Shown in pieces: positions 475 to 45,476 of a DNA stretch of 45,776 nt (positions are counted from its first letter, which is position 1; every line of letters starts with the position of its first letter). Under the pieces are notes generated by a model, which searched no databases, was not told the DNA's origin, and worked only from the letters and a program-made list of their open reading frames with translations. The DNA is from Betaproteobacteria bacterium (lineage in GTDB: Bacteria > Pseudomonadota > Gammaproteobacteria > Burkholderiales > Thiobacillaceae), in NCBI GenBank assembly GCA_007280375.1, contig QYQG01000021.1, positions 1 through 45,776 of the forward strand, given 5' to 3'. The translations under genes were made by a program, and so were the position numbers.

Positions 475-475
475 G

Positions 476-727
476 TCAGGACTCCTGCCAGTGATCGATG
501 ATCCCGATGATGGTGAGATCACTCGGAAAATCCTTGCTACCTGCTGCCTCGCGGGCGGCGGAACTGCCGACGCAAATCACCCAGTCGCCTGGGATGCAGC
601 CGACCGCATCCACCGCGACACTTGGGATGCCGCCACTTTTTTCCTTGACCACCAGCAAAGGGCGATGCCCCATTTCCTGTATCCGGTTGGTCGAAACCAG
701 CGTCTTTTCCACTTGCATGATCTTCAT
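476..727 (-). CDS. csoS4A: Carboxysome vertex protein CsoS4A (BMC-P pentamer)
   Basis: The 83-aa product MKIMQVEKTLVSTNRIQEMGHRPLLVV... is EutN/CcmL-like. GAGGTG lies upstream of ATG 727. The gene sits directly after csoSCA. Confidence 0.9.
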   Translation of the reverse strand: MKIMQVEKTLVSTNRIQEMGHRPLLVVKEKSGGIPSVAVDAVGCIPGDWVICVGSSAAREAAGSKDFPSDLTIIGIIDHWQES

Positions 728-6114: not shown

Positions 6115-7095
6115 TTGAAATTACGTAACGTCACCTTGAACCAGATGCGCATCTTCCACAGCCTCGGCCGGAACTTGAGCTTCACCCGTGCCGCAGAAGA
6201 GCTGTTTCTGTCCCAGTCGGCGGTATCGATTCAGGTCAAGCGCCTGGGGGAAAGCGTGGGCATGCCCCTGGTTGAACAAGTGGGCAAGCGCATTTTTCTA
6301 ACCGAAGCCGGCAAGGAGTTGTTCGAGGCCTGCCGTGATGTACTTGATCGCTTGCGGGTGCTGGATGAGGACATGACAGGGCTCGAAGAAGGGGTGAGGG
6401 GGCCGCTCAACCTCGCGGTCATCACCACCGCGAAATACTTCATGCCCCACTTGCTCGGTGTCTTTCTGCGCGAGCACCCGGCAGTTGAACCCCGCCTGAC
6501 GGTCACCAATCAGACGCGAATTTTCGAAAGGCTGGAGAGAAACATGGATGACCTGGTCATCATGGGAACCCTGCCCGAAAACCTCGACCTAGAGACGGCG
6601 CATTTTCTGGACAACCCCCTGGTCGTGGTGGCGCCACCCGATCATCCGCTGGTGGGGGTGAAAAGCATTCCGCTGGAGCGACTCGTGCAGGAGCGCTTTC
6701 TGTCACGCGAGCCGGGTTCCGGCACGCGCGCGGCGCGCACCCGCCTGTTTGCCGAGCACGGGCTGGCGATTCGGACTTACATGGAACTGGGCAGCAGCGA
6801 GGCGATCAAGCAGGCCGTCATGGCCGGGTTGGGCATCTCAGTGCTCTCCATCCACAACCTGCGTCTCGAATTGAAAACCGGCCTCATCGCCGTGCTGGAT
6901 GTGGAGCACTTTCCCTTGCATCGGCAGTGGTATGCCGTACACCTGAAGGGCAAAAAGCTGTCGGCGACGACGCGCATGTTCCTAGATTTTTTACTTAAGG
7001 ACGGTGCCCGAGTCTGTGAAGAGATCCAGCCCTATTTGACGGGCTTGTCACCGTCCCCCAAAAAGCCCGGCCCAAGAAAAAGAGACATCAGGTAA
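6115..7095 (+). CDS. LysR-family regulator, CbbR-like paralog, divergent from the sbtA-cso operon
   Basis: TTG start at 6115 lies 7 nt after AGGAG (6103-6107). The N-terminal HTH LSFTRAAEELFLSQSAVSIQVKRLGESVGMPLVEQVGKRIFLTEAGKEL closely parallels the cbbR at 26815. Confidence 0.88.
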   Translation: MKLRNVTLNQMRIFHSLGRNLSFTRAAEELFLSQSAVSIQVKRLGESVGMPLVEQVGKRIFLTEAGKELFEACRDVLDRLRVLDEDMTGLEEGVRGPLNLAVITTAKYFMPHLLGVFLREHPAVEPRLTVTNQTRIFERLERNMDDLVIMGTLPENLDLETAHFLDNPLVVVAPPDHPLVGVKSIPLERLVQERFLSREPGSGTRAARTRLFAEHGLAIRTYMELGSSEAIKQAVMAGLGISVLSIHNLRLELKTGLIAVLDVEHFPLHRQWYAVHLKGKKLSATTRMFLDFLLKDGARVCEEIQPYLTGLSPSPKKPGPRKRDIR

Positions 7096-9917: not shown

Positions 9918-11573
9918 TTACCGGTTGTCTGCCGCCGCCTGCAATGCACGGCGAGTCGCGGCGAAGACATCGGCCGCTGCGATGAACACCCGCTCGGCAC
10001 CGCAGATTTCGACGGTGCCGGTTTTCACCAGTTGGGCATACAGCGGCGCGCTCACCTCGGCCAGCATCAGGGTCGCGCCGCCACGCCGGAGTGTGTGCGC
10101 GTATTGCTCGATTACCGTCACCAGGGTGCTGCCCGCGCGCTGCACGCCGCGCAGGCGCAGGATGACGCAGGCACCGGGTGCCGGGTCAGGCAATTTATTC
10201 TCCAGCGTGGCGGCGGCGGCGAAGTGCAAGCTGCCATACGCCGCCAGCACCACGGTCTGCCCCGGTTGCAGCTGCGCCGGCGCCGGGTGTTCGGCGAACG
10301 AGCCGTTGGCAAGCGGCGTCATGCCGACCGTGCGCACGTCCACCGACGAGGCGTACAGATAATGCAGCATCGACAGCGCCACCCCCATGAACACCGCTTG
10401 CTGCACCGGCAGCAGCAGCGTGGCGATAAACGTCGCCAGCAGGATGACGCGCGGTTCCCAGCCGGAATGCCAGACATCGCCGATGCGCGCTGGCTTGATC
10501 GCCTCGATCCCGGCCATCACCAGCAAGGCGGCAATCGCGGGCATGGCGAGATAGCCGACCCCGTCCGCCAGCAGCAACACCGCCAGGATGATGAAGCCGC
10601 CTGAAAAAATACCAGCCCAGCGCGAACGCGCGCCGGCCTTCAGGCTGACCGCGGTTTCCGACATCGCGCCGCCGATCGGCATCCCCTGAAACAGACCGGA
10701 CGCAATATTGGCCACGCCCTTGGCGGAAAAATCGCGCGAGATATTGGGATAGCCGCCGTCGGGATTGGGAATGGTCTTGCTCACGCCCGCCCCCTGCACC
10801 AGGCCGATGATCGCCAGCGCGGCGGCGGCCGGAAACACCGCCGCCACCAAGCTCCACTGCGGCAACACCAGCACGGGGAAGCCGCCGGGAATCAGGGCGG
10901 TGTCGTTCAGCGTGGCCACGCTGTCGAGTCCGGCCAGCGCCACGCCGAGCGTCGCCACGACCAAGGCGATGGCCATCGCCAACTGCGCCGCGCGGGTGCG
11001 GTTGAGCAGCACGATCAGCGCCAGCGTGCCCAGTCCGATGGCGCTGCTCCAGGGATCGGAGCGGTGCAGGTGGCCGATCCAGTCAAGCGTGCGCAGGACG
11101 GCGTTGCTGCCTTGCGCGTGATAGCCGTTCAATTCGCCGAGCTGGCTCAGGATGATGCGCACCGCGATGCCGGTCATGAAACCGATCAGCACGGCATTCG
11201 CCACGAAACGCACCAGGCCGCCCAGGCGCAGCAGCCCCAGGCCAAGCTGGATGAGGCCGACCAGCAGCACCAGCACGATCAGCGCCTGCACCTTGGTCTC
11301 GCCGCCAAATTCGCCCAGCGCGCTGCCGGTGGCCACCGCCAGCGCGCCCGTGTTGGCCACAACCATGAAGTGCGAGCTCGCCAGCATGGCCGCAATCGGC
11401 GTGCCGATCATCAGCGCGTAGAGACCGTGAATCGGGTTGAGTCCGGCCAGTATGGCCGAGGCGATGCCGTCGGGAATCGCGACCAGCGCGGTGGTCAGCC
11501 CGGCCGACAGGTCGGCCTTGAGTGTTTGGGGAAACCAGCGCCGCAGGCGATTTGGCAGCGTAGGTTCAGGCAT
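9918..11573 (-). CDS. SulP-family anion transporter with C-terminal STAS domain (copy 1)
   Basis: 551 aa. The N-terminus carries ...LKADLSAGLTTALVAIPDGIASA, and a C-terminal STAS-like segment is present. Confidence 0.88.
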   Translation of the reverse strand: MPEPTLPNRLRRWFPQTLKADLSAGLTTALVAIPDGIASAILAGLNPIHGLYALMIGTPIAAMLASSHFMVVANTGALAVATGSALGEFGGETKVQALIVLVLLVGLIQLGLGLLRLGGLVRFVANAVLIGFMTGIAVRIILSQLGELNGYHAQGSNAVLRTLDWIGHLHRSDPWSSAIGLGTLALIVLLNRTRAAQLAMAIALVVATLGVALAGLDSVATLNDTALIPGGFPVLVLPQWSLVAAVFPAAAALAIIGLVQGAGVSKTIPNPDGGYPNISRDFSAKGVANIASGLFQGMPIGGAMSETAVSLKAGARSRWAGIFSGGFIILAVLLLADGVGYLAMPAIAALLVMAGIEAIKPARIGDVWHSGWEPRVILLATFIATLLLPVQQAVFMGVALSMLHYLYASSVDVRTVGMTPLANGSFAEHPAPAQLQPGQTVVLAAYGSLHFAAAATLENKLPDPAPGACVILRLRGVQRAGSTLVTVIEQYAHTLRRGGATLMLAEVSAPLYAQLVKTGTVEICGAERVFIAAADVFAATRRALQAAADNR

Positions 11574-18962: not shown

Positions 18963-19001
18963 GATTATTAGTTCGTGTTTATCGAGCATTTAAGGGGCGC
19001 C

Positions 19002-19919
19002 ATGCTCAACTTCAAACACCTGCATTATTTCTTTGTCGTGGCCAAGACTGGGGCGGTGAATCGCGCGGCGGAAAAACTGCATCTCACCCCTCAGACCCTG
19101 TCCGGCCAGATCTCACAATTTGAGGAACGGCTCGGCGTGAGCCTGTTCCGGCGCGCCGGGCGAGGTCTGGAACTAACTGAAATCGGGCGCTTGGCGTTGT
19201 CCTACGCCGAGGAGATATTCCAGGCTGGCGAGGATCTGGAGGCGTTCCTGCGTGGCGGTATGCACGATCGTGTTTTCCCGTTCCGGGTCGGCATTGCCAA
19301 CGTTGTTCCCAAGTCCATTGCTCACCAATTGCTAATGCCTGCATTAGCCCTGCCCGAGCCGGTGCAACTAGTGTGCCGGGAAGACCGGCTAGACCGCCTG
19401 CTGGCGGAACTGGCCATTCATCGCCTGGACATGGTGCTGGCCGACCGCCCGCTGCCGCCGGGCATGGACGTGAAAGGCTACAGCCATCCGCTGGGTGAAT
19501 GCGGCGTTACCTTCTTTGCCGCGCCCAGTCTGGCGACCCGCCTGGGCGCTGATTTTCCCGGCAACCTAGATGGCGCTCCGCTGCTCATTCCTGGCGAGGA
19601 CAGCGCCTTGCACACCCCGCTCATGCGCTGGCTGGAGCGCGGCAAGCTGCGGCCGCGCATCGTCGGGGAATTCGACGACAGCGCGTTGATGAAGGCCTTC
19701 GGCCAGGCGGGGGTTGGTGTGTTTCCCGCGACGACGGCCAGTGCGGCCAGTGTGGAGAAGCAGTACGGTGTGCGTCGCTTGGGCGAGACAGAGGAAATCA
19801 GGGAACGCTTGTTTGCCATCTCGGTGGAACGCCGGATCACGCATCCCGCCGTACTGGCGGTGAGCGAGGCAGCGCGTAACGGATTGTTTACGATGCCGGG
19901 CAGGGCGCGTTTGAGTTGA
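19002..19919 (+). CDS. LysR-family regulator, NhaR-type
   Basis: I place the start at ATG 19002 (MLNFKHLHYFFVVAKTGAVNRAAEKLHLTPQTLSGQI), which parallels E. coli NhaR (NYNHLYYFWHV...AAEALYLTPQTITGQI). Confidence 0.85.
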   Translation: MLNFKHLHYFFVVAKTGAVNRAAEKLHLTPQTLSGQISQFEERLGVSLFRRAGRGLELTEIGRLALSYAEEIFQAGEDLEAFLRGGMHDRVFPFRVGIANVVPKSIAHQLLMPALALPEPVQLVCREDRLDRLLAELAIHRLDMVLADRPLPPGMDVKGYSHPLGECGVTFFAAPSLATRLGADFPGNLDGAPLLIPGEDSALHTPLMRWLERGKLRPRIVGEFDDSALMKAFGQAGVGVFPATTASAASVEKQYGVRRLGETEEIRERLFAISVERRITHPAVLAVSEAARNGLFTMPGRARLS

Positions 19920-19945: not shown

Positions 19946-20995
19946 CTAGCCGAGCAATTCGAGCTTGCGGCTCTCCCAACTCAGCACCGCTGTGCGGCGG
20001 TGCATTTTTTCTGCGAGTTGCGGGAATTCCCGCGTAATGGCCGCGGCGGCAAAGTCGGACAGGAAGCGCGATTTGATTTCTGCGCGGGCGCGGTCAACAC
20101 CTGTTTCGTGGTAGGGCACCGAAGCGAGCAGTAAAAAGCCGTCGTCGGGAACGCGCCCAGCGGCCATGTTGCTTTGCAGAATGCCTGCCGCTTTGCGCAC
20201 CGGGTCGGCGAGGTCGGGGCTATAGGGGCCGATGATCAGCGCCTGGTTAGGCGTGTGCAGCCAGTCGAAGCCGCTCCCCAGGCAAATCATCCATTCGCGG
20301 TGTTCAATGTTGATTTCGCGGTTGGTTTGCCGCACCTGCGTCACATGCCGCAGGTTGCCTTGAATCAGCGGCAGCAGGTCGGCGCGTATTTGTTCCGGCA
20401 TATCGGGAAACAGGCTGCTTAAATAGGCCGGTACCATATCCGTCGTGGTCAGCTCGGCGACATTGAGGGTGGCACCGTTTGCGCCGTGCAAAATCAGCGC
20501 ATCCTCGTCGGTTTCAAACCCGCATACCAGCGGATAAACGGTTTGGTGCCCCGCACCGTAGACCTGCTCGATCTGGCGGCGAATGGCGAAGGTATGTTCG
20601 CGCGCGGCCTCGGTATCGTAGTTAAACCCAGCGCAGCCCCGGTGTGGGTCGCCTTTGGAGAAGTGGTAGTTGGACATCATCAGCACGCGCCGCCCTTCGC
20701 GCACCCTCGGCATCACATAGTCAAACAACACTTCACCCAAATGCGGCCAACCCAGATCAAAGCGCCCGCCCAAGTTGCGAAAAGGCTGAATAATGCCCAT
20801 CGGGGTTTCGGTGGCGACCGGAATATTGACGCGACCATCCATGCATTTGAGCACCGCCAGCGCCGTCGGATGTTCGGCCAGATAACGCTTGCGTGCCAGC
20901 CAGGTTTCCGAGCTGCCAAAAGAGGCAGCATGGTTTTGTGCGTGGTCGAACAGCCAGGTTAAACGAGTTGCGATAGGTTGCGCGTAAAGATCCAT
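19946..20995 (-). CDS. Stand-alone CsoSCA-like (carboxysomal carbonic-anhydrase-like) protein, paralog 1. It lacks the CsoSCA N-terminal region.
   Basis: I favour ATG 20995 (AGAGG SD, 349 aa) over TTG 21025. Motifs LKCMDGRVNI, NYHFSKGDPHRGCAGF, GFETDEDALILH and HREWMICLGSGFDWLH align with the window's csoSCA motifs SACADGRLKG, VYHFSSSDPTHEGCAAH, GLDTDNDAIRVH and HAERFISIGDGFEEVH. Confidence 0.75.
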   Translation of the reverse strand: MDLYAQPIATRLTWLFDHAQNHAASFGSSETWLARKRYLAEHPTALAVLKCMDGRVNIPVATETPMGIIQPFRNLGGRFDLGWPHLGEVLFDYVMPRVREGRRVLMMSNYHFSKGDPHRGCAGFNYDTEAAREHTFAIRRQIEQVYGAGHQTVYPLVCGFETDEDALILHGANGATLNVAELTTTDMVPAYLSSLFPDMPEQIRADLLPLIQGNLRHVTQVRQTNREINIEHREWMICLGSGFDWLHTPNQALIIGPYSPDLADPVRKAAGILQSNMAAGRVPDDGFLLLASVPYHETGVDRARAEIKSRFLSDFAAAAITREFPQLAEKMHRRTAVLSWESRKLELLG

Positions 20996-21052
20996 GCTTT
21001 GCCTCTGTGTGAAGGGCGTGCTCAAACCAAGCGGCGGCTACATCTTGCCTGA

Positions 21053-21349
21053 TTATTCGTTTTCGCCCAATTCGGGATCCCAGCCTTTGGTTCTAGCCGC
21101 AGCCACCGCCTTGGCGTAAATCTCGGTATGGCGTTGCTGAAGTTCGGGCGGCAGACGGCTGGGCAGGTTGGCGTATTTGTCCCATTCCACGCTTATTTTA
21201 TCCATTAGTAGTTGCATCCGCCCTAAATCCCAGCCGGAGCAGTCTTCGTTTTCCGGAAGAATGCCGAAGACCCAGCTATCGAGCACCATGCGCCCGAGCT
21301 GGGTGATGCCGTGATTGTCATGATGAAGTCCAACATAGGTGTTGCTCAT
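21053..21349 (-). CDS. Small conserved-looking hypothetical protein (98 aa) between cbbO and the CsoSCA-like gene
   Basis: Clean ORF with non-shadow-like composition (MSNTYVGLHHDNHGITQLGRMVLDSWVFGILPENEDC...), co-oriented in the cbbLSQO operon. It may correspond to the small cbbN-type gene reported after cbbO in nitrifiers, but I cannot verify this. Confidence 0.55.
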   Translation of the reverse strand: MSNTYVGLHHDNHGITQLGRMVLDSWVFGILPENEDCSGWDLGRMQLLMDKISVEWDKYANLPSRLPPELQQRHTEIYAKAVAAARTKGWDPELGENE

Positions 21350-21441: not shown

Positions 21442-23784
21442 TCAGCGGGTCAGGCCAGCATACAGCAGTGGCAGTTTTTCGGGTAGGCGCTGCACATGAT
21501 CGACCACCATAAAATTGTTCTGTCCAAAGATGCGGCTGACATAATTGTCGGCACGCGGATCGAGGCTCATGCAATACGTGATCACGCCGAGTTTGGCGAC
21601 TTCTTCCACCGCTTTTTTGGTGTCGGAGCGCAAGTATTGCGGGTCGCGCACGTCCACGTCGGCCGGTTCGCCGTCGGTAATCACGATGAGCAACCGCTTG
21701 GCGGAGCGTTGCAGTTGCAGGTGATGGCCGGCGTGGCGAATCGCCGCGCCCATGCGCGTGGAGAGCTGTCCGGTCATGCCGGCGAGTTTGGCCTTTGGAG
21801 CGTCGTCCCACTGCTGGTCGAAGTCTTTGAAGCGGTAATACTCAACATCGTGACGACCGTCGGAACAAAAGCCGTGGATGGCGAATGGGTCACCCACTTT
21901 GTTGATGGCATCGGCGAGCAACACGCAGGCTTGCTGGGTGAGTTCGCGCACCGAATACTCTTGGCCGTGTACGGTTTCGTTGGTCGATTCGGATAGGTCG
22001 AGCAGCACCAAAATCGAGAAATCACGCACCTTGCGCACGCTACGCATCATGATGCGCGGGTCGGGCTGGTTGCCCAGACGAATGTCGATAAAGCTGGCAA
22101 TCGCCGCGTTGATGTCGATTTCGTCGCCGTCTTCGAGCTTGCGAATGCGCTGCACGCCTTGTGGCTGCATCGCGTCGAGCAGGAACTTCATGCGGTGGAT
22201 TTCGCGTTTGTACTTGGCGGTAATGTCGTCGATGACTTGCAAATCGCCTGACTTGGCGCGTTTTTCCTGCACCGTTGCCCAAGCGGGGCGCTCCAACTGA
22301 ATCTGGTAGTCCCACTCGGAATAATGGAAGGGGTCGGACAGCGGCTCTTTACCTTCCAGCTCGTTCCAACTCTTGCCCATGTCTTCATACGGAAACAGCT
22401 CGGTCGGCAGCACCCAGATCTCCTGTGCGTCATCGCCCGCGCCTTCGACCTCGACTTCGTTCGCCATTTCCATCACATTGACATATTTGCGCGTCTGCTT
22501 GACGGAGTCATAGCCCGCACCAGCCGCCTTGTTGAAATCGAATTCCTCGAATTCCCAGAAGTAGCGGTTGTCGTCGCGGTAGATCGCGGTGAGGAGGTCT
22601 TTGCGTGGATTGAACGGGATGCGTTTTTGAACAAAGCTGTGCGCGAGTTGCACGCCGATGTCCCACGAGGTGTGGTTGGTGTCGAGTTTGTCTTGCGCCT
22701 GTGCAAACAATGCACGGCCTTCTGCAATCCACGGGTCGCTGTCCGCGTAGCTGTCGTCAAGCAGCGCGCGCGCCAGGCGATTGAGGTAGTCGCCCATGCT
22801 GGTGGTCATGGCGGGTGTAGCGGTGTGCAGTTTCGCCCATAACGGCTTCATGCCGGGGAAGCGGCGGATTGTCAGCGCCTCAACACGCGCATCTTCGATG
22901 ACAGAAATCACGGCCATCTGCATCGGATTGAGCGCTTCGGCGGAAATGGGGGTTTTGGTTTCGACCATGTGCGCGGCGCAGTGCGCGGCGGTGGCGCGAT
23001 AAAGCTCCAGACCCGAGACAGGATCAAAGCCTTCAAGCGTGAAATCATCGAGCGCATCCGGTAGATGCAACAGATAGTCTTCGATATAGGGTTTATGACC
23101 TTCGCGTGTCTCAAAATCACCCGCCGTCGGGCGCATAAAAAAGTCGCGCGCCCACAGTGCCCGCAGATACATATTGATGCGGCGCTGCACATCGACCAGC
23201 AGCGTGCCTTTACGCTCCTTCTGCAGCATCGCAATCGAGTCTTTCGATTCCAGACTGAAGTAGCGAATCTGCTCTTCGTAGTTGGTGCGATGCGCGTGCG
23301 CGCCCCACAACGCCCAGCGCCGCAAGCCGCCCAGCGTGAGCTGCTGAAACAGCACTTCGAGCTTGTCCAGCATCGGGCGCACGCCGCGCGGCGCTTGGGC
23401 GATCAGGGTGTTGATGAATTGCAGGTAATTAATGAACAACGCGGCATCGCCGAGCCGGTTCGCCGCCGTCGGTGCCGTCGCCAGTAGCAGTTCGATGACC
23501 GAACCCGAGGTGCGCGATGCGAGTGACAGCGCGGCGGTAATTAGCTCACCGATGACATCTTCGCCTACTTCTTTGGCCACTTGCGGCGCGTCCACTATCC
23601 ACGCCTCGACCAGCGTGTCGCCCTTGCCCAGCCCGCGCATGGCGGCCGCGCCCTTGAGATAGGTGTCCAAGCCACGCGGCGAGAACACCTTGGTGGCGTC
23701 ATGCCAGTTGGCGTTGAGCGCATCCTGACTGTGTTGCGACAGACCTTCTAATAGTTCGGCGTAGTCAGCGAGATTGATCGACAT
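21442..23784 (-). CDS. cbbO: RuBisCO activase adaptor CbbO (vWA-domain protein), copy 1
   Basis: 780 aa with a C-terminal vWA MIDAS motif LVLLDLSESTNE. It follows cbbQ. GAGGTGAA lies before ATG 23784. Confidence 0.93.
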   Translation of the reverse strand: MSINLADYAELLEGLSQHSQDALNANWHDATKVFSPRGLDTYLKGAAAMRGLGKGDTLVEAWIVDAPQVAKEVGEDVIGELITAALSLASRTSGSVIELLLATAPTAANRLGDAALFINYLQFINTLIAQAPRGVRPMLDKLEVLFQQLTLGGLRRWALWGAHAHRTNYEEQIRYFSLESKDSIAMLQKERKGTLLVDVQRRINMYLRALWARDFFMRPTAGDFETREGHKPYIEDYLLHLPDALDDFTLEGFDPVSGLELYRATAAHCAAHMVETKTPISAEALNPMQMAVISVIEDARVEALTIRRFPGMKPLWAKLHTATPAMTTSMGDYLNRLARALLDDSYADSDPWIAEGRALFAQAQDKLDTNHTSWDIGVQLAHSFVQKRIPFNPRKDLLTAIYRDDNRYFWEFEEFDFNKAAGAGYDSVKQTRKYVNVMEMANEVEVEGAGDDAQEIWVLPTELFPYEDMGKSWNELEGKEPLSDPFHYSEWDYQIQLERPAWATVQEKRAKSGDLQVIDDITAKYKREIHRMKFLLDAMQPQGVQRIRKLEDGDEIDINAAIASFIDIRLGNQPDPRIMMRSVRKVRDFSILVLLDLSESTNETVHGQEYSVRELTQQACVLLADAINKVGDPFAIHGFCSDGRHDVEYYRFKDFDQQWDDAPKAKLAGMTGQLSTRMGAAIRHAGHHLQLQRSAKRLLIVITDGEPADVDVRDPQYLRSDTKKAVEEVAKLGVITYCMSLDPRADNYVSRIFGQNNFMVVDHVQRLPEKLPLLYAGLTR

Positions 23785-23836: not shown

Positions 23837-24640
23837 TTAAAAGAATGTGCTAACAGCAGCGTCCAGCGCGTCGCGCATGTCTGGGTCGTCAGTAATCGGG
23901 CGCACCAAGGCCACGCGGCAGGCGGCCAGCGGATTCACATTTTTAGCGATCAGCGAACCGGCGTAAATCAGCATCCGGGTGGACAGACCTTCGTCCAGGC
24001 CATGGCCTTTGAGGTTGCGGCTACGCTCGGCGATCGACACCAGTTTGCCGGCGACTTCGAGGGACACACCCGATTCGTGCGCCACAATTTCAGATTCAAT
24101 CGTGTGATCGGGGTAGGTGAAATCCAGTCCACCGAAACGCTGCTTGGTCGATTGCTTCAAGTCCTTCATCAACGATTGATAGCCGGGATTGTAGGAAATC
24201 ACAATCTGGAAATCGGGATGGGCGTGGAGCAGTTCGCCTTTCTTTTCCAGCGGCAGCACGCGGCGGTTGTCGGTGAGCGGGTGGATGACGACGGTGGTGT
24301 CCTGACGCGCTTCGACGATTTCATCGAGATACACAATCGCGCCGTGACGCGCACCGATGGCGAGCGGGCCGTCCTGCCATTCAGTGCCGGACGCCGACAA
24401 CAGGAAACGCCCGACCAGATCGGAAGCGGTCATGTCTTCGTTACACGCCACGGTAATCAGCGGCTTGCCCAGCTTATGCGCGATGTACTCGACAAAGCGC
24501 GTCTTGCCGCAGCCGGTCGGGCCTTTCAGCATCATCGGCATGCGCACTGAGTAGGCGGCCTCGAAGAGCTCGACTTCGTCGGCGACGGGACGGTAGTAGG
24601 GTGCTTTGGGGATGCGGTACTGATCAACGATATTGCTCAT
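23837..24640 (-). CDS. cbbQ: RuBisCO activase CbbQ (MoxR-type AAA+), copy 1
   Basis: 267 aa with Walker A GPTGCGKT and Walker [16 protein letters not shown] lies before ATG 24640. Confidence 0.95.
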
Positions 24641-24710: not shown

Positions 24711-24754
24711 AACAAAAAGCCCCCGCGCCCAGCGGGCGACGGGCGACGGGGGCT
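24711..24754 (-). terminator. Intrinsic terminator/attenuator between cbbS and cbbQ
   Basis: On the minus strand, AGCCCCCG...CGGGGGCT forms an 8-bp outer stem with an inner CGCCC/GGGCG stem, followed by TTTTGTTT. It starts about 20 nt after the cbbS stop. Confidence 0.55.
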
Positions 24755-24774: not shown

Positions 24775-25131
24775 TTAAACGGTCTTGCCGCGATAAATCA
24801 CCATGGCCGCACCTTGCGACTGGTTGAAGTTGTTGTAGCCGACCAGACGAACATGGTTGTCCGGGTTGGCTTTGTGGCAGGCTTCCGCTTCGGCCAGCAC
24901 GACTGACACGTCGGTTTCGCCAAACATCGGCAGCTTCCACATGTACCAGTACGAATCCATGATGTACACGGGCTCGGTGTGTTCAATCGCCGGGTTCCAG
25001 CCTTTTTTCACCAGATACGAAACCTGCGCCTTGATCTGCTCTGCGGTCATTGCGGGCAGGTAGGAGAAGGTTTCGAACTTGCGGCTCGCGGGGTCAGACA
25101 CGCGGCTTTTGTAATCCATAACTTCAGACAT
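24775..25131 (-). CDS. cbbS: RuBisCO form I small subunit CbbS
   Basis: I place the start at ATG 25131 ([26 protein letters not shown]), with AGGAA upstream. 118 aa. Confidence 0.93.
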
Positions 25132-25159
25132 TTTTGTTCCTTTCAAATTGTTTATCTGG

Positions 25160-25213
25160 ATCCCGGATCAACCCTGCGGCTGTCCGGGATGACCTTGCGC
25201 AAAGGCGCAAGGT
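25160..25213 (-). other. Two perfect intercistronic hairpins between cbbL and cbbS (probable mRNA-stabilising or processing structures)
   Basis: atcccgga(25160-25167)/tccgggat(25183-25190) pair as one stem. accttgcgc(25192-25200)/gcgcaaggt(25205-25213) pair as the second, which abuts the cbbL stop codon. Confidence 0.5.
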
Positions 25214-26634
25214 CACTTGTGGGCAACATCCAGCTTGTCCACGGTATCGAACTCGAACTTGATTTCTTTCCATGTTTCCATGGCGATCTTCAGTTCGGGG
25301 CTGTGGGCAGCGGCTTTGGTCAGGATGTCCTTACCGGCTTTCTCGAGTTCGACGCCTTCGTTACGCGCTTGCACACAGGCTTCGAGTGCGACGCGGTTGG
25401 CCGCAGCGCCAGCCGCGTTGCCCCACGGGTGGCCGAGCGTACCGCCACCAAACTGCAGCACCGAATCGTCACCAAAGATGGCCACCAGCGCAGGCATGTG
25501 CCAGACATGGATACCGCCGGAGGCCACCGGGATCACGCCAGGCATGGAACCCCAATCTTGGTCAAAGAACAGGCCACGGCTACGATCTTCGGGGATGAAG
25601 CTATCTCGCATGGTGTCGATCCAGCCCAGCGTCGCTTCGCGGTCGCCTTCGAGCTTGCCGACAACGGTGCCGGAGTGCAGGTGATCGCCACCCGACAAAC
25701 GCAGCACCTTGGTCAGCACGCGGAAGTGAATACCGTGGTGCGGATTGCGGTCGAGCACGGCGTGCATGGCGCGGTGAATGTGCAGCAACATGCCGTTTTT
25801 ACGACACCAGTTGGCCAGACCCGTGTTGGCAGTCAAGCCGCCGGTCAGGTAGTCGTGCATGATGATCGGTGCGCCCAGCTCTTTAGCAAACTCGGCACGC
25901 TCGTACATCATTTCCGGCGTCGGTGCGGTGACGTTCAGGTAGTGACCCTTACGCTCGCCGGTTTCGCGCTCGGCTTTTTGGCAAGCTTCAACCACGAATT
26001 CAAAACGGTCACGCCAACGCATGAACGGCTGGCTGTTGACATTCTCGTCGTCCTTGGTGAAGTCGAGACCGCCACGCAGACATTCGTACACCGCGCGGCC
26101 GTAGTTCTTGGCGCTCAGGCCCAGCTCCGGCTTGATGGTGCAGCCCAGCATAGGACGGCCATATTTGTTCAGGCGGTCACGCTCGACCTGGATACCCGCC
26201 GGCGGGCCGCCGCAGGTTTTGACATACGCAATCGGGAAGCGAATGTCTTCCAGACGCAGGGCGCGCAAGGCTTTAAAGCCGAACACATTGCCGACCAGCG
26301 AGGTCAGCACATTGACGACGGAGCCTTCTTCGAAGAGGTCGATCGGATAGGCCACAAAGGCGTAGAAACAGGTGTCGTCGCCGGGCACATCTTCGATGCG
26401 ATAGGCGCGGCCTTTGTAGTAGTCGAGGTCGGTCAAGAGGTCAGTCCACACCGTGGTCCAAGTACCGGTTGACGATTCAGCCGCCACCGCAGCAGCGACC
26501 TCTTCACGCGGCACACCGGCTTGCGGGGTGATCTTGAAGCAGGCCAAAAGGTCGGTGTCCAGCGGGATGTAATCCGGGGTCCAATAGGTTTGGCGATACT
26601 CTTTCACGCCAGCGTTGTAAGTCTTAGCAGCCAT
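25213..26634 (-). CDS. cbbL: RuBisCO form IA large subunit CbbL, with Glu at the K177-equivalent position
   Basis: 473 aa beginning [22 protein letters not shown]... Active-site motifs [46 protein letters not shown] and ASGGIH are all present. The TIKPKLGL motif instead reads [19 protein letters not shown] is present. Confidence 0.95.
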
Positions 26635-26814: not shown

Positions 26815-27774
26815 ATGCGCCACCACACCACTTTTCGTCAGCTGGAGATTTTCGAGTCCATCGCTCGTCTCGGCAGTTTTACCCGCGCATCCGAAGCGCT
26901 GTTTCTCACCCAACCCACGGTGTCGATGCAGATGAAAAAGCTCAGCGACATCGTGGGTGCGCCACTGGTGGAGCAGGTGGGCAAGAAAATCACGCTCACC
27001 GAAGATGGCCGCGAACTGGCGCAAGCCAGCCGAGAAATCTTCGCCATCCTCGACCACTACACCATGTCGGTGTCCGAACGGCAGGGCTTGAAAAAGGGCA
27101 AGTTAAAGCTGATGGCGATCACCACCGCGTCCTATTTTACGCCACGCCTGCTGGGCGATTTCGTTAAGTTGCACCCCGGCATCGATGTGTCCTTGCATGT
27201 CAGCAACAAAGAACATGTGCTGGCCAGCATGGCTGACAATCTTGATGATCTTTACCTGTTGGGCACGCCACCCGATGATATCGATATGATCGCCATCCCC
27301 ATCATGGATAACCCCATCGTTGTCTTGGCTGCGCCGGATCACCCGTTGGCGAAGCAAAAAAACATCACGCTTGAACGCCTGGCACAGGAACCTTGGATCA
27401 TGCGCGAAGCCGGTTCTGGCACCCGCAACGCCATAGAGTGCATGTTCACAGCAAAGGGGCTGGAAATTCGCCCGCGTCTAGAGCTGGGCAGCAATGAAGC
27501 GATCAAGCAGGCTATTCTCGCTGACCTCGGTATCTCTGCGCTGTCCTGCCATGCGCTCGCCCTGCACGCGCCCGGTCAGTTCGCCGTGTTAGATGTAAAA
27601 GATTTCCCCATCCGGCGCCATTGGTACGCGGTTTATCCAGCCGGACGGCAGATATCCGTGGTCGCGCGCGCCTTCCTCGATTTTTTACTGGCGCAGCGCG
27701 ACGATCTCTCCGCCTGTGCGCCGGACGGCGGTAAGGCTGCTGGCGAATCGCCTCTCTTCGTGGCGACCGTTTAG
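26815..27774 (+). CDS. cbbR: LysR-family RuBisCO operon regulator CbbR
   Basis: 319 aa beginning MRHHTTFRQLEIFESIARLGSFTRASEALFLTQPTVSMQMKKL... It is divergent from cbbL and upstream of cbbM. Confidence 0.92.
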   Translation: MRHHTTFRQLEIFESIARLGSFTRASEALFLTQPTVSMQMKKLSDIVGAPLVEQVGKKITLTEDGRELAQASREIFAILDHYTMSVSERQGLKKGKLKLMAITTASYFTPRLLGDFVKLHPGIDVSLHVSNKEHVLASMADNLDDLYLLGTPPDDIDMIAIPIMDNPIVVLAAPDHPLAKQKNITLERLAQEPWIMREAGSGTRNAIECMFTAKGLEIRPRLELGSNEAIKQAILADLGISALSCHALALHAPGQFAVLDVKDFPIRRHWYAVYPAGRQISVVARAFLDFLLAQRDDLSACAPDGGKAAGESPLFVATV

Positions 27775-28094
27775 GCGATGTGATGCGCTTGGAAAAAGAC
27801 CTTGGTGGCGGTGCGCGTCCCTGAACCCAATTTGCGGCTTAAAAAGGGTTCTGTCGTGCGGTGGGTGAGGCATTCGGCGATGTCTGGCCGGCCCTCTCGA
27901 ACAGAGGGATGTCAATGGCGTATTGCCTATGATTGGTTGGCCTATGCGTGTCAGGCTATGCGAGGCGTATAGGGGCTTGTATCAGTAATTATTATTCTTC
28001 GTATTAGAAGATTTTAATTCCCATTATGATGGCAGGGTCTTATAGTGCGCGGGCTGTCTCGTTAATCAACCGATTCTCTTACTTGGAGTTACTC

Positions 28095-29474
28095 ATGGAT
28101 CAATCTGCACGCTACGCCGACCTGTCTTTGAAAGAAGACGACCTAATCAAGGGAGATAGGCACATCCTCGTCGCTTATCACATGCAGCCCGCTACGGGTT
28201 ATGGCTATCTGGAAACGGCGGCGCACATCGCCGCCGAGTCTTCCACGGGCACCAATGTGGAGGTGTGTACCACCGATGACTTCACTAAGGGCGTGGATGC
28301 GCTGGTGTATGAGATCGACGAAGCTAAAGGCGTGATGAAGGTCGCTTATCCGATCGAGCTGTTCGACCGCAACATGATCGACGGGCGCGCCATGATCGTG
28401 TCGTTCCTGACCTTGGCGATCGGTAACAACCAAGGCCAGGGCGATGTGAAGTGCCTGAAGATGCATGACTTCTATGTGCCGTGGTCGATGCTGCGTCTGT
28501 TTGATGGCCCGTCTAAAGATATCACCGATATGTGGGACATCCTCGGTCGCCCGCGCGTCAACGGCGGCTACATCGCCGGCACCATCATCAAACCGAAACT
28601 CGGCCTGCGTCCTGAGCCGTTTGCTAAGGCGGCCTACCAGTTCTGGCTCGGTGGCGACTTCATCAAGAACGACGAGCCGCAAGGCAACCAAGTGTTCTGC
28701 CCGGCCAAGAAGGTTTACCCGCTGGTGTATGACGCGATGAAGCGCGCCATGGACGAAACCGGCCAGGCCAAGCTGTTCTCCGCCAACATCACCGCTGACG
28801 ACCACTACGAAATGCTCGCTCGTGCCGATTTCCTTCTGGAAACCTTCGGCCCGGATGCCAATAAACTGGCCTTCCTGGTCGACGGCTATGTCGGCGGCCC
28901 TGGCATGGTGACCACCGCCCGCCGTCAGTACCCGGATCAGTACCTGCACTATCACCGTGCCGGTCACGGCGCAGTCACTTCGCCTTCCGCCCTGCGTGGC
29001 TACACCGCCTTCGTGCTGTCCAAGATGTCCCGTCTGCAAGGGGCTTCCGGCATCCATGTAGGCACGATGGGTTACGGCAAGATGGAAGGCGCGGCGGACG
29101 ACCGCGACATCGCCTATATGATCGAGCGTGATTCGGCTGACGGCCCGTACTACCACCAAGAATGGCACGGCATGAAGCCGACCACCCCGATCATCTCCGG
29201 CGGCATGAACGCCTTGCGTCTGCCGGGCTTCTTCGAGAACTTGGGCCACGGTAATGTGATCAACACCTCCGGTGGTGGTTCTTACGGCCATATCGACTCC
29301 CCGGCCGCTGGCGCGATCTCCCTGCGTCAGTCCTACGAGTGCTGGAAGGCCGGCGCTGACCCGATCGAGTTCGCGAAAGAGCACAAAGAGTTTGCCCGTG
29401 CCTTCGAGTCCTTCCCGGGCGATGCCGACAAGCTCTTCCCGGGCTGGCGTGACAAGCTGGGCGTGCATAAGTAA
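28095..29474 (+). CDS. cbbM: RuBisCO form II CbbM
   Basis: I place the start at ATG 28095 (GGAG at 28085-28088). [20 protein letters not shown]... is near-identical in pattern to Thiobacillus CbbM as I recall it. Active-site motifs [29 protein letters not shown] and GKMEG are intact. Confidence 0.96.
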
Positions 29475-29517
29475 TTGTGTGCCAAACCATCTTAGTGTTA
29501 TGCGCTAAGCGGTAAGG

Positions 29518-29550
29518 AACGCCCCCGGTACGCTGGGGGCGTTTTTATTT
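29518..29550 (+). terminator. Intrinsic terminator/attenuator after cbbM
   Basis: aacgccccc(29518-29526)/gggggcgtt(29535-29543) forms a 9-bp stem with an 8-nt loop, followed by TTTATTT. Confidence 0.75.
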
Positions 29551-29579
29551 CCAGATTAAAACCCTCACAGGATAACGCT

Positions 29580-30380
29580 ATGAACACAGAGCAATATACG
29601 ATACAGACCGAGCCGTATTACCAGTCGCAAGGTCGCGAGGTCGCCTTGTACGAGGCCGCCTATGCCGCGCGTCTGCCGGTGATGGTCAAAGGCCCGACGG
29701 GTTGCGGTAAGTCGCGCTTCGTCGAATACATGGCGTGGAAGCTAAAGCGGCCGTTGATTACCGTGGCCTGTAACGAGGATATGACGGCCAGCGATCTGGT
29801 CGGTCGTTACCTGTTGGACGCCAATGGCACGCGCTGGCTGGACGGTCCGTTGACGACGGCCGCCCGCATCGGGGCGATTTGCTACCTCGATGAGATCGTC
29901 GAGGCGCGTCAAGATACCACGGTGGTCATCCATCCGTTGACCGACCATCGCCGCGTCTTGCCCTTGGATAAAAAGGGCGAGTTGATCGCCGCGCACCCCG
30001 ATTTTCAGTTGGTCATCTCCTACAACCCCGGCTATCAATCGTTGATGAAGGAGCTGAAACAGTCCACCAAACAGCGTTTTGTCGGGTTTGACTTCGACTA
30101 TCCCGAGGCCGAATTAGAGACGCTGATCTTGGCCAAGGAGACCGGTCTAGACGCGGCCATGGCGGGTCGCTTGGTGAAGATCGCGGGGGTTGCACGCAAC
30201 CTGAAAGGCCATGGTCTGGATGAAGGCATCTCGACGCGCTTGTTGGTCTATGCCGCGACCTTAATCAAACACGGTGTGGCGGCACAGGATGCGTGTCGTA
30301 TGGCCTTGGTGCGCCCGCTCACCGATGACGCGGACATCCGCGAGACCTTGGATCACGCCATTGATTCGACCTTTGCGTAA
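29580..30380 (+). CDS. cbbQ: RuBisCO activase CbbQ (AAA+), copy 2
   Basis: 266 aa with Walker A GPTGCGKS and Walker [10 protein letters not shown]. Highly similar to copy 1. Confidence 0.95.
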
Positions 30381-30414
30381 CCCCCCCCAATGACCCGCTC
30401 AGGATAAACAGGCC

Positions 30415-32712
30415 ATGACTGAAATCCCTCTCATTGTCCCTATCGGCACGTTGCCGGTTACGGAGTATCAGCACCCGTTGATGCAGGCCTATTGGGTGCA
30501 ACTCGACACCCAGTTCAAACCGGTAGAGGAGGTGTTTGAGGCGGTGATGGAGGAGGCCTTGGCCCTCCTCACCCGCGCAGGCATTAAAGATTACCTCGAT
30601 GCGGCGCGGCTGATTGGCAAGCTGGGGCGCGGGGCCGAACCCATGTTGGCCTTCCTCGAAGCATGGCCATCGGCAGCGAGCACCTTGGGCGAGGCGGCCT
30701 TGCCCGAGATCATGGCGGTGATCGATAAAATGCAACGCTCGCCCAACAGCAAGGCGATCACCCCCTTTTTGCAAACGCTGGCGCCGGTGGCGCGCAGTGT
30801 GCAGACGCAGGCACAGATGCAGCATTACCTCGCCCTGACGCTCGACTTTATGGAGCGCACCACGGGGTCCATCCACGGCCATCACACCACCTTCCCTAGC
30901 CCTGGCCTGCCCGATTTTTTGTTACAAGCGCCGTTTTTGCTCAGCCAACTCAGCCTGGGCGGTCTGAAAAACTGGGTGGAATACGGGGTTCGCAACTACC
31001 GCAGCCACCCAGAGCGGCAGATCGATTACTTCACCGTGCAATCGGCCGACAGCCGCGCCGTCTTGCAACGCGAACGACATGGCACCCTGTTTATGGATGT
31101 CGAGCGTCGCTTAGATCTCTATCTGCGTGGCCTGTGGCAGGATAGCGATCAGCTCGTGCCCTATTCCTCGGCCTATGACGAGATCCGTAAACCGATCCCG
31201 TATTACGACAAATTGGGCTTGCGCGTCCCCGATGTGTTTGACGATAGGGCCGGGGTGACGGGCATGGATCGGTATCGCGTGGTGTTGGCGCACATGATCG
31301 GCCATCGCCGTTGGACGACCACGCAGGTGGCCGATAACTGGAGTCCGTTTCAGCGCATGGCGGTGGAATTCTTTGAAGACTGCCGCGTCGAGACCTTGCT
31401 CTGCCGCGAATATCCTGGCCTGCATCGGCTCTTGTTGGCCTTGCACCCGCACCCCGTCGAGGCGGCGTGTGACCCGTTGACGACCTCGTGTCTGCGTCAT
31501 CGGCTGGCGATGTTGTCACGCGCCTTGCTCGACCCGCAACACGGCTATCACGATGCCGATCTGCTCGATTTTACGGCCCGTTTCCATGCCCTGATGGCCG
31601 AGGGTGAGGCCAGTACTGGGGCGATTGCGACCTTGGCCTTGTCCTATGTGGCACGCACACGGCGGCAGACGGATCAACTGGCGAAGGTGCATTTTGACGA
31701 TACCGTCATCGACTACCGCGACGATAACCGGCAGATGTGGCGCTTTATCGAAGAGGATGACGAAGGCGAGATCGCCGATCAACATCGAAAAATGGACAAG
31801 AGCGAGGAGCTTAAAGGCCTGCCGCCACGCCATTATCCGGAGTGGGATTATCAAAGTCAGACCTATCGCCCCGATTGGGCCAGCGTCTATGAAGGCCTGC
31901 ACCCGTCAGGCAATGCCGGCGATATCGACAGCCTGTTGCAAAAACATGGCGCCTTGGCCAAGCGCTTGAAGAAGATGCTCGACCTGTTAAAACCGCAAGA
32001 CAAGGTGCGTATCCGCTATCAAGAAGAGGGCAGTGAGCTAGACCTTGATGTCGCCCTGCGTTCCTTGATCGACTTTAAGGGCGGCGCGCAACCGGACACC
32101 CGCATCAATATGAGCCACCGCACCGATGGACGCGATATCGCGGTGTTGCTGTTGGTGGATCTGTCCGAATCGCTGAACGAAAAGGTGGCCGGGTCGGAGC
32201 AGACGATCTTGGAGTTGTCGCAGGAGGCGGTGTCATTGCTGGCCTGGGCGATCGAACACCTAGGCGACCCATTTGCGATTGCCGGTTTTCATTCCAACAC
32301 CCGCCACGAGGTGCGTTATCAGCACATCAAGGGCTTCTCTGAGCATTTTGACGACACCGTCAAAGGCCGTCTGGCGGCGATGCAGGCGGGTTATTCGACC
32401 CGCATGGGGGCGGCGATTCGCCACGCGGCGCACTATCTGGGCGGCAAAAAAGCGGACAAGAAGTTGTTGTTGGTCCTCACCGATGGTCAGCCGGCCGATG
32501 TCGATGTCCATGATGAACGCCTACTCATCGAGGACGCGCGGCAGGCGGTGAAAGAGGTCGATCGCGAGGGCATCTTCACCTATTGCATCAACCTAGACCC
32601 GAAGGCGGACGAGTATGTCGCCGACATCTTTGGTCGTCAGTACAGCGTCATCGACAACATTCAACGCCTGCCAGAACGCCTGCCCGAGCTGTTCTTGGCC
32701 TTGACCAAGTAA
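30415..32712 (+). CDS. cbbO: RuBisCO activase adaptor CbbO (vWA), copy 2
   Basis: 765 aa with MIDAS motif LLLVDLSESLNE. The C-terminus ...RLPERLPELFLALTK parallels copy 1 (...RLPEKLPLLYAGLTR). Confidence 0.93.
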   Translation: MTEIPLIVPIGTLPVTEYQHPLMQAYWVQLDTQFKPVEEVFEAVMEEALALLTRAGIKDYLDAARLIGKLGRGAEPMLAFLEAWPSAASTLGEAALPEIMAVIDKMQRSPNSKAITPFLQTLAPVARSVQTQAQMQHYLALTLDFMERTTGSIHGHHTTFPSPGLPDFLLQAPFLLSQLSLGGLKNWVEYGVRNYRSHPERQIDYFTVQSADSRAVLQRERHGTLFMDVERRLDLYLRGLWQDSDQLVPYSSAYDEIRKPIPYYDKLGLRVPDVFDDRAGVTGMDRYRVVLAHMIGHRRWTTTQVADNWSPFQRMAVEFFEDCRVETLLCREYPGLHRLLLALHPHPVEAACDPLTTSCLRHRLAMLSRALLDPQHGYHDADLLDFTARFHALMAEGEASTGAIATLALSYVARTRRQTDQLAKVHFDDTVIDYRDDNRQMWRFIEEDDEGEIADQHRKMDKSEELKGLPPRHYPEWDYQSQTYRPDWASVYEGLHPSGNAGDIDSLLQKHGALAKRLKKMLDLLKPQDKVRIRYQEEGSELDLDVALRSLIDFKGGAQPDTRINMSHRTDGRDIAVLLLVDLSESLNEKVAGSEQTILELSQEAVSLLAWAIEHLGDPFAIAGFHSNTRHEVRYQHIKGFSEHFDDTVKGRLAAMQAGYSTRMGAAIRHAAHYLGGKKADKKLLLVLTDGQPADVDVHDERLLIEDARQAVKEVDREGIFTYCINLDPKADEYVADIFGRQYSVIDNIQRLPERLPELFLALTK

Positions 32713-40157: not shown

Positions 40158-40272
40158 GGGGTATCTATAAGCGATATGAGGGTGTAATAGGGGGTTAATT
40201 CTAGCCACTTCGAGGCGCGGCTGGCGTAAAATAAACCTATCCCCACCGCCTGTATGCCCTTCGGAGGACACT

Positions 40273-40692: not shown

Positions 40693-40694
40693 CG

Positions 40695-41751: not shown

Positions 41752-41853
41752 GAATTTGATGGCCGCTTTAGTGGTACACTGCGTCAAAATTCAGCCTGTC
41801 GGCGCGTGTGTTGGCGCACGAAATTATTTATCAATCTAAAAATAGCCTATAAA

Positions 41854-43992: not shown

Positions 43993-44014
43993 GGCGGCGG
44001 GTTAGAACACGATA

Positions 44015-45460: not shown

Positions 45461-45476
45461 GCGTGAGGTAAAAGGG

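Follow-up and report, generated by a model that had tools for sequence, protein, structure and literature searches.

A compact carbonic anhydrase of the CsoSCA2 clade predicted at the end of a cbbLSQO operon in a Thiobacillus-like betaproteobacterium

Positions 1–45,776 of contig QYQG01000021.1 (the window) form a carbon-fixation island. The host is a Thiobacillus-like betaproteobacterium, as judged from the best named homolog of the protein described here (87% identity, Thiobacillus sp. SCN 63-374). The cbbL, cbbS, cbbQ and cbbO genes of the window are followed by the small gene orf98 and then by csoSCA2 copy 1 (19946–20995, minus strand), an intact gene for a predicted compact beta-carbonic anhydrase of the CsoSCA family. 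The protein is a member of the clade known as CsoSCA2 or 'non-cso' CsoSCA, and it is likely to be an active, soluble carbonic anhydrase (CA) of the cytosol. For a more specific role, the supply of CO2 from cytosolic bicarbonate to RuBisCO outside carboxysomes, we see about an even chance. The initial annotation, which was made without database searches, had proposed a non-encapsulated enzyme of the CsoSCA family. This is supported by sequence comparison, profile searches, the predicted fold and the conservation of the zinc and dyad residues.

Gene, homology and predicted active site

The open reading frame of copy 1 runs from the ATG at 20995 to the TAG at 19946–19948 and encodes 349 amino acids. 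A Shine-Dalgarno-like AGAGG lies 6 nt 5' of the ATG. The TTG at 21025 is less likely as a longer start because the homologs and the second copy in the window begin at the equivalent of the ATG. No sigma-70-like site turned up in its vicinity when promoters were scanned for. The ratio of nonsynonymous to synonymous substitution rates (dN/dS) against Thiobacillus orthologs is 0.11–0.14, and the sequence comparisons indicate a functional gene of an old clade under purifying selection.

By BLASTP, copy 1 aligns with the bona fide carboxysomal CsoSCA of the same window with 26% identity over 243 residues (E 2e-11), and the alignment reproduces all four motif pairs that had been matched by eye in the initial annotation. 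Cys51, Asp53 and Arg55 pair with Cys176, Asp178 and Arg180 of CsoSCA, and His111 and Cys121 pair with His245 and Cys256. The His-to-Cys spacing of 10 against 11 and the lack of about 125 N-terminal residues, both noted previously, are borne out by this alignment. Compared with carboxysomal CsoSCA (CsoS3; PDB entries 2FGY, 9G4T and 8THM), copy 1 also has shorter loops, but it shares the predicted fold and pseudo-dimer, the single putative zinc site and the CxDxR...H...C set, as well as the H-x-E / G-x-G-F-D motif that opens the C-terminal domain.

The similarity to CsoSCA well exceeds chance. The Pfam domain CsoSCA_cat matches copy 1 with 30.4 bits, above the gathering score of 21.5, and the CsoSCA model TIGR02701 matches with E 2.4e-10 and 39.9 bits, which does not reach its equivalog cut-off of 241. 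The Pfam domains CsoSCA_N (PF20687) and CsoSCA_C found no match in copy 1. When a profile built from 41 homologs was run against the PDB sequences, it retrieved CsoSCA chains only (E 1e-6) and placed His111 and Cys121 on residues 270 and 281 of the 2FGY chain, which are His242 and Cys253 of Halothiobacillus neapolitanus CsoSCA.

An AlphaFold2 model was built on the 41-sequence alignment and reached a mean predicted local distance difference test score of 87.5 and a predicted template modeling (TM) score of 0.86. In a Foldseek search of the PDB, the top five matches were CsoSCA chains (8THM, 2FGY, 9G4T) with E of about 1e-15, probability 1.00 and query TM scores of 0.69–0.74, in which 378–396 columns are aligned with full CsoSCA chains. 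Canonical beta-CAs come next in the ranking with E 0.02–0.1. In the model, 50 residues precede Cys51; predicted helices at 8–26 and 29–41 are followed by a strand at 44–50 that leads into this cysteine. The helices run straight into the Cys51 strand. There is no room for the N-terminal domain of about 144 residues or for the disordered RuBisCO-binding tail.

Cys51, Asp53, Arg55, His111 and Cys121 are invariant in the 41 close homologs. They are likewise invariant in 98 of 98 aligned sequences, comprising 96 full-length representatives of 50%-identity clusters and both window copies. Across the same 98 sequences, no conserved Cys/His/Cys set is present in the C-terminal half, where only H232, E234 and G240 are at least 95% conserved and C238 is replaced by Ala or Gly in most members. 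Sequence and model agree on one active and one defunct domain, with one predicted zinc site per pseudo-dimer.

Asp244: This residue aligns with Asp409 of the H. neapolitanus enzyme, and the position is Asp or Glu in 76 of the 98 family members. The Cyanobium CsoSCA is gated by ribulose 1,5-bisphosphate (RuBP) and carries Lys469 at the position of Asp409, whereas the H. neapolitanus enzyme is constitutively active. Since Asp244 matches Asp409 and not Lys469, constitutive activity independent of RuBP would be expected for copy 1. For Arg196, the partner of Asp409, the equivalent is ambiguous by one residue (Phe72/Arg73 against H. neapolitanus Arg196/Lys197), and we make no claim for this arginine.

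Canonical beta-CAs: E. coli Can and CynT, Haemophilus influenzae HICA and CcaA have the same zinc ligands and Asp-Arg dyad as copy 1, and their cellular task of equilibrating CO2 and HCO3- is probably the same. They differ in being homodimers or higher oligomers of subunits of about 220 residues, whereas copy 1 consists of two fused, diverged domains with one site. The structural likeness is weak, as the Foldseek values above indicate.

Clade membership and published relatives

More than 2,366 database proteins match copy 1, nearly all of about 350 residues. The matches listed share 64–87% identity and come from Thiobacillus, Sulfuricella, Sulfuritalea, Rhodocyclaceae and Candidatus Thiodiazotropha; the best named homolog among them is from Thiobacillus sp. 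SCN 63-374 (87%). In an exhaustive search of 50%-identity representatives, 532 clusters were found at E<=1e-3 and 233 at E<=1e-30. A scan with one genome per species located csoSCA2 in at least 594 species genomes, among them Nitrospira, Azoarcus/Aromatoleum, Dechloromonas-type organisms, Desulfobulbus and Geobacteraceae. The bit scores of copy 1 are bimodal, with 169–462 to the best 150 of the 50%-identity representatives against 51 to the CsoSCA of the window.

Copy 1 had been taken for a paralog of the window's own CsoSCA. A recent duplication is rejected, since the two share only 26% identity against the 65–87% to orthologs from other genera, and by these scores CsoSCA2 appears to be a separate old clade. 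The gene also lies outside the cso locus: the csoS2-csoSCA pair is 17.7 kb away, as counted from the end of csoSCA at 2293 to the stop codon of copy 1 at 19946. Copy 1 is not a carboxysomal CsoSCA, as it falls short of the TIGR02701 equivalog, has neither CsoSCA_N nor the tail, and does not follow csoS2.

The clade is published. The name CsoSCA2 comes from the paper 'Atypical carboxysome loci: JEEPs or junk?' (USF Genomics Class, Scott, Sutter, Kerfeld et al., Front Microbiol 2022; PMC9164163). That paper describes a second, further truncated variant with a 40-residue N-terminal domain predicted as two short helices, and an AlphaFold model with an active and a defunct domain and complete active-site residues; it also predicts that dimer contacts are lost. 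It reports the clade across many phyla, in autotrophs and heterotrophs, as 'yet to be studied', and finds csoSCA2 adjoining non-carboxysomal cbbLS in two Sulfuricella species (PMC9164163). Pulsford et al. (Sci Adv 2024; PMC11086599) described the same clade as a 'non-cso' orphan cluster, whose model matches H. neapolitanus CsoSCA with an intact active site and one zinc site per pseudo-dimer, and which is without the N-terminal hook. In a 2025 PNAS paper, CsoSCA2 serves as an outgroup only. Copy 1 resembles the second variant in its length of about 350 residues, its two-helix stub of about 40 residues, its active and defunct domains and its non-cso locus, and nothing essential differs. The earlier remark that such a family has no described function holds for the function, but the family itself had been published in 2022 and 2024.

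Names and unusual members: In the following, P-numbers denote homolog proteins and L-numbers surveyed csoSCA2 loci. The CsoSCA2 proteins P0019, P0059, P0066, P0095, P0102 and P0118 carry the NCBI/UniRef name 'carboxysome shell carbonic anhydrase'. This is probably an over-annotation because these proteins fail the TIGR02701 cut-off and come mostly from loci without carboxysome genes. Among long or odd members (P0124 with 704 residues, and others), a Pfam search for domain fusions showed CsoSCA_cat only. A circular permutation occurs in P0206 (locus L084, 5001–6128) and also in P0208, P0250 and P0269; in the permuted order, the C-terminal defunct domain (14–173) precedes the N-terminal helices and the catalytic domain (198–368).

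The operon in the window and csoSCA2 neighbourhoods in other genomes

The gene order cbbL-cbbS-cbbQ-cbbO-orf98-csoSCA2 was upheld by a Pfam scan, and so was the placement of copy 1 as the last gene of this row, outside a cso operon (Table 1). The gaps are 92 bp between cbbO and orf98 and 57 bp between orf98 and csoSCA2, and the consensus scan found no terminator-like site on the minus strand from cbbO to the end of csoSCA2. From this spacing, the cbbLSQO-orf98 transcript probably extends through csoSCA2 at its end. A possible attenuator is the hairpin that separates cbbS from cbbQ, which would lower the expression of cbbQ-cbbO-orf98-csoSCA2 relative to cbbLS.

Table 1 Features of the window. 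Coordinates refer to the 45,776-nt stretch
Feature	Coordinates	Strand	Evidence and remarks
csoS4-like	226–522	-	Pfam/NCBIfam
csoSCA	737–2293	-	Bona fide carboxysomal CsoSCA, comparator; Pfam N, cat and C domains; 3' of csoS2; phmmer to 2FGY E 1.7e-145
csoS2	2321–4330	-	Pfam/NCBIfam
Sbt_1-family (SbtA-like) membrane protein	4827–5807	-	Directly 5' of csoS2
LysR regulator	6115–7095	+	Divergent from the Sbt_1-family gene
SulP	9918–11573	-	Pfam/NCBIfam
LysR regulator	18975–19919	+	Convergent on csoSCA2, stop codons 26 bp apart; Pfam
csoSCA2 copy 1	19946–20995	-	Intact coding sequence, 349 residues, compact CsoSCA-family beta-CA; open reading frame and ribosome-binding site, Pfam, BLASTP, AlphaFold2/Foldseek, dN/dS
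Catalytic codon segment	20633–20845	-	Cys51 20843–20845, Asp53, Arg55, His111 20663–20665, Cys121 20633–20635
orf98	21053–21349	-	Small conserved gene between cbbO and csoSCA2, 98-residue product
cbbO	21442–23784	-	RuBisCO activase adaptor with VWA domain; Pfam VWA
cbbQ	23837–24640	-	AAA+ RuBisCO activase; Pfam CbbQ_C and AAA_5
Terminator-like hairpin	24722–24736	-	Between cbbS and cbbQ; consensus scan only
cbbS	24775–25146	-	RuBisCO small subunit; Pfam RuBisCO_small
cbbL	25213–26634	-	Form I RuBisCO large subunit; Pfam RuBisCO_large and RuBisCO_large_N; NCBIfam PRK04208, 794 bits
cbbR-like LysR regulator	26815–27774	+	Divergent from cbbL; Pfam HTH_1 and LysR_substrate
Form II cbbM-cbbQ-cbbO	28026–32712	+	Pfam/NCBIfam
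Chr-family transporter	34396–35742	+	Pfam/NCBIfam
SulP-Usp fusion (tandem Usp domains)	36198–38708	-	Pfam/NCBIfam
NhaD-like	38892–40454	-	Pfam/NCBIfam
usp	40273–40692	+	Ends 2 bp upstream of the start of copy 2; Pfam Usp
csoSCA2 copy 2	40695–41751	+	2-bp deletion between 41085/41086 in a (GC)n run; catalytic residues all kept
SulP/STAS anion transporter	41806–43992	+	54 bp 3' of copy 2; Pfam and NCBIfam
NuoM-like antiporter subunit	44015–45460	+	22 bp after SulP; Pfam Proton_antipo_M
dabA homolog, 5' end	45504–45767	+	43 bp after the NuoM-like gene; runs off the window

orf98: The product has no Pfam, NCBIfam or PDB match. The gene also lies 3' of cbbO in L004, L076 and L079, both where csoSCA2 adjoins it and where it does not, and hence tracks cbbO rather than the CA. 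Orthologs of cbbO with 86–88% identity are located directly 5' of csoSCA2 in L001–L004.

Convergent LysR gene: In L075, a homolog of this regulator (73% identity) has the same orientation as csoSCA2 and lies directly 5' of it. A terminator-like hairpin at 19984–20003 (+), about 65 nt beyond the stop codon of the LysR gene, sits within the 3' end of csoSCA2, and for this reason the transcripts of the two genes may overlap.

cso region and transporters: The Sbt_1-family gene occupies the site that cbbLS takes in typical cso operons, which fits a 'split' carboxysome locus of Thiobacillaceae; this split cso/cbbLS arrangement was described in the 2022 paper (PMC9164163). The 45-kb window is unusually dense in candidate transporters of dissolved inorganic carbon (DIC), with three SulP proteins, a Chr-family transporter, the Sbt_1-family protein and the start of a DAB operon.

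Copy 2: The second copy given in the initial annotation is real, but its frameshift had been missed. It shares 63% identity with copy 1 and 79% with the L076 homolog. We located the lesion from the translations and from DNA alignments with L076 and copy 1. With the frame repaired, there are no further stops and dN/dS is about 0.08, in keeping with purifying selection; against L076, dN/dS is 0.05–0.09 on both sides of the lesion. Because other stops are absent and dN/dS is low on both sides, the lesion marks a very recent pseudogene or slipped-strand switching, or is a sequencing error.

Right end of the window: From the sequence, the row usp-csoSCA2-sulP-nuoM-like-dabA looks like a single operon. 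The dabA end was recognised by tblastn with the DabA of L004 (63% identity over residues 2–90), which itself matches Pfam PF10070 with 786 bits, and orthologs of the NuoM-like protein (63–72% identity) lie directly 5' of dabA in DAB-type operons elsewhere. Besides dabA and dabB, the extended DAB-type operon holds the NuoM-like gene and two further full-length Proton_antipo_M genes (L004, 13127–20871, minus strand), and thus three antiporter-like subunits beyond the published DabAB/DabABC. It is present in Thiobacillus, Thiodiazotropha and Rhodocyclaceae and starts at the right end of the window (40273–45776, plus strand).

For the survey of gene neighbourhoods, up to 10 kb of flanking sequence to either side of csoSCA2 was taken from 80 species genomes. 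The arrangement cbbO(-orf98)-csoSCA2 on the same strand occurs at four of the 80 loci, all from Thiobacillus. At one Sulfuricella locus, cbbL is divergent, with a LysR gene between it and csoSCA2. The cbb link is narrow, being confined to Thiobacillus and, in another arrangement, Sulfuricella. The link with cbbQO that had been considered initially is thus restricted by lineage.

Ion-translocating or anion-transport systems are the commoner neighbours. DabA and/or DabB are encoded within 10 kb at 20 of the 80 loci, in the order Proton_antipo_M-dabA-dabB-Proton_antipo_M-Proton_antipo_M where the contig is long enough, and at 18 of these 20 an antiporter-like gene converges on csoSCA2 within 800 bp. 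About 17 of the DAB loci are from Thiodiazotropha species and are therefore not independent. L044 and L072, which are beyond the 20, have an adjacent antiporter-like gene only, followed by the end of the contig. At eight of the 80 loci, a complex-I-like cluster (NuoL-like, NuoH-like, NuoL/M-like, a NuoCD fusion and NuoB-like, the last confirmed in L047 only) converges on csoSCA2. SulP adjoins csoSCA2 on the same strand at seven loci, mostly in Nitrospira. Neighbours from none of these classes (cbbO, DAB, complex-I-like, SulP) are found at the remaining 38 loci.

Complex-I-like clusters: These are found at L047 (11805–18960, minus strand), L086 (1–5850, plus strand), L002, L003, L023, L040, L060, L068 and L079. 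They resemble complex I and group-4 hydrogenases, but in their large subunit a CxxC motif and any conserved Cys are lacking, so that it is not a [NiFe] hydrogenase. Hence, the label 'Hyf hydrogenase' was dropped for the NuoCD-like clusters, and by sequence the complex is classed as 'Ehr-type'. At the upstream end of the cluster, a SulP gene is present in L023, L040 and L068 and a CitMHS-type transporter gene in L047.

Ten more distant CsoSCA2 representatives were examined besides the 80. For one with 42% identity (L086/L087), the complex-I-like cluster lies on the same strand, 150 bp 5' of the gene. In L088, csoSCA2 and a SulP gene follow the atp operon on the same strand. Three others stand directly after atpC or converge with it, one follows an rnf operon, and the other four have a housekeeping or uninformative context or a short contig. 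The atpC-adjacent members are at L088 (6001–7059), L090 (3820–4926), L091, L092 (1159–2253) and L089; a small Pro_CA_2 gene is nearby in two such loci, and SulP also in one.

The published account annotates the neighbours of 'non-cso' CsoSCA as NAD(H) dehydrogenases, [NiFe] hydrogenases or permeases (PMC11086599). The survey sharpens this vague statement without revealing anything of a new kind. What we did not find in the 2022 and 2024 papers is the terminal position in the cbbLSQO-orf98 row of Thiobacillus, as they report betaproteobacterial cbbLS neighbours for Sulfuricella only; the resolution of the 'NADH dehydrogenase-like' neighbours into DAB-type operons and Ni-Fe-less Ehr-type clusters; and the second, frameshifted copy that heads the sulP-nuoM-like-dabA row.

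Proposed role and competing explanations

In the proposed mechanism, an N-terminal two-helix stub of about 40–50 residues would lead into the catalytic domain, where Cys51, His111 and Cys121 would form the zinc site next to the Asp53-Arg55 dyad. The other half of the pseudo-dimer would be a degenerate version of this domain at the C-terminus, as in carboxysomal CsoSCA. Without the large N-terminal domain and the RuBisCO-binding tail that serve in encapsulation, the enzyme would be free in the cytosol. It would interconvert CO2 and HCO3- there and keep them near equilibrium for RuBisCO outside carboxysomes or still to be packaged into them, with bicarbonate drawn from the many candidate DIC transporters encoded nearby. 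CsoSCA2 would have been recruited to the cbbLSQO operon in Thiobacillus. A general cytosolic role is supported by the homologs in heterotrophs and in housekeeping contexts (rnf and atp operons). The 2022 and 2024 papers propose the same cytosolic-CA reading; in the former, CsoSCA2 is proposed to hold cytoplasmic CO2 and HCO3- near equilibrium for RuBisCO, and beta-CA genes adjoining non-carboxysomal RuBisCO genes are known in Hydrogenovibrio (PMC9164163).

Several points weigh against this proposal. The CsoSCA_cat match spans residues 108–182 only, and phmmer with the single sequence of copy 1 returned only a chance match among the PDB sequences. The case for co-transcription is drawn only from gene spacing and from consensus scans. 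Hydrolases of the beta-CA fold that act on carbonyl sulfide (COS) and carbon disulfide (CS2) have the same five residues. A free CA would be expected to short-circuit a CO2-concentrating mechanism (CCM) that accumulates bicarbonate; the genome also encodes carboxysome parts, and cbbLS may be its only form I RuBisCO. In the literature searched, we found no assay of any CsoSCA2 member, and nothing useful on the expression of CsoSCA2 or on Ehr together with a carbonic anhydrase. With a free CA and carboxysome genes in one genome, the timing or control of expression or activity must matter.

Membrane modules: The serious rival casts CsoSCA2 as a soluble enzyme that works together with energy-coupled membrane modules (DAB-type, Ehr-type, SulP), and takes the copy in the cbb operon for a secondary recruitment. 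By analogy with CupA-NDH-1 and DabA-DabB, (de)hydration would then be coupled functionally, perhaps physically, to ion translocation or bicarbonate transport. The surveyed DAB, Ehr-like and SulP adjacencies, the same-strand arrangements of L086/L087 and L088, the neighbours annotated by Pulsford et al. (PMC11086599) and the tight same-strand row around copy 2 speak for it. However, the adjacencies are mostly convergent and not operonic, 38 of the 80 loci have no such neighbour, and most DAB cases stem from Thiodiazotropha. DAB operons already have a CA-like site in DabA, no membrane or docking element is predicted for CsoSCA2, no fusions to such partners were found, and copy 1 itself is without such a neighbour. 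The transporter-coupled alternative of the initial annotation has therefore gained some support from the neighbourhoods, though not from copy 1, and for this protein we regard it as unlikely.

The likeness to DabA and to CupA/CupB of cyanobacterial NDH-1, which perform vectorial CO2 hydration, lies in the CA-type zinc chemistry and the association with antiporter-like (NuoL/M-type) subunits. CsoSCA2 differs in that it is outside their sequence families, has no membrane-inserting elements and is mostly convergent, with DabA itself encoded in the neighbouring operons. For the clade as a whole, a recurrent soluble partnership with extended DAB, Ni-Fe-less Ehr-type, SulP and ATP synthase modules, for an energy-coupled handling of CO2, HCO3- and H+ that is independent of carboxysomes, is doubtful. 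The convergent layout or the frameshift of copy 2 could reflect a need to keep a free CA and active DIC pumps apart.

COS or CS2 hydrolysis: A hydrolase of this fold that uses another small linear molecule, for instance COS or CS2, instead of hydrating CO2, such as the COSase of T. thioparus, would share the Cys-His-Cys site and the Asp-Arg dyad, so their conservation does not discriminate, and the host belongs to the sulfur-oxidising Thiobacillus group. We nevertheless consider it very unlikely that copy 1 is such an enzyme, as CsoSCA2 is widespread in non-sulfur heterotrophs, Nitrospira and candidate phyla, its neighbours are carbon-fixation, DIC-transport and bioenergetic genes rather than sulfur genes, and the nearest folds are true carbonic anhydrases.

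CO2/HCO3- sensing: The initial annotation had also allowed for a binding or regulatory protein derived from a CA. LysR regulators adjoin csoSCA2 here and in L075, and in the Cyanobium enzyme the C-terminal domain of CsoSCA serves as a regulatory site that binds a ligand. The invariance of all five catalytic residues in the 98 sequences, including the dyad, is unexpected for a pseudo-enzyme, and the Pfam scan found no DNA-binding or signalling domain. A non-catalytic sensor or regulator is thus harder still to credit.

Carboxysomal CA or remnant: Least probable of all is that copy 1 is an alternative carboxysomal CA, packaged with CbbLS through some different interaction, or what is left of a decaying carboxysome locus, since the co-location with a cbbLS that may fill the carboxysomes of Thiobacillaceae and the NCBI names of some homologs are outweighed by the absence of the RuBisCO-binding N-terminal domain and tail, by the frequency of the clade in organisms and loci without carboxysome genes and, against decay, by strong purifying selection (dN/dS of about 0.12) in what appears to be a separate old clade.

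The basic picture of the family is unchanged by this analysis, as the clade and its likely activity were already in the literature and the novelty had at first been overstated. Judged by its sequences, the CsoSCA2 clade of predicted carbonic anhydrases is very widely distributed and strongly conserved, and it may have given rise to the carboxysomal enzyme. The neighbourhoods with DAB, Ehr-like and SulP genes point to CA-transporter coupling as a topic. The value of the present finding lies in the refined picture of the neighbourhoods and in the Thiobacillus operon as a clean, testable operonic case for CsoSCA2. This case comes from a genome that combines carboxysome genes, form I and form II RuBisCO, many candidate DIC transporters and a free CA, and it raises the question of how the short-circuit of the CCM is avoided.

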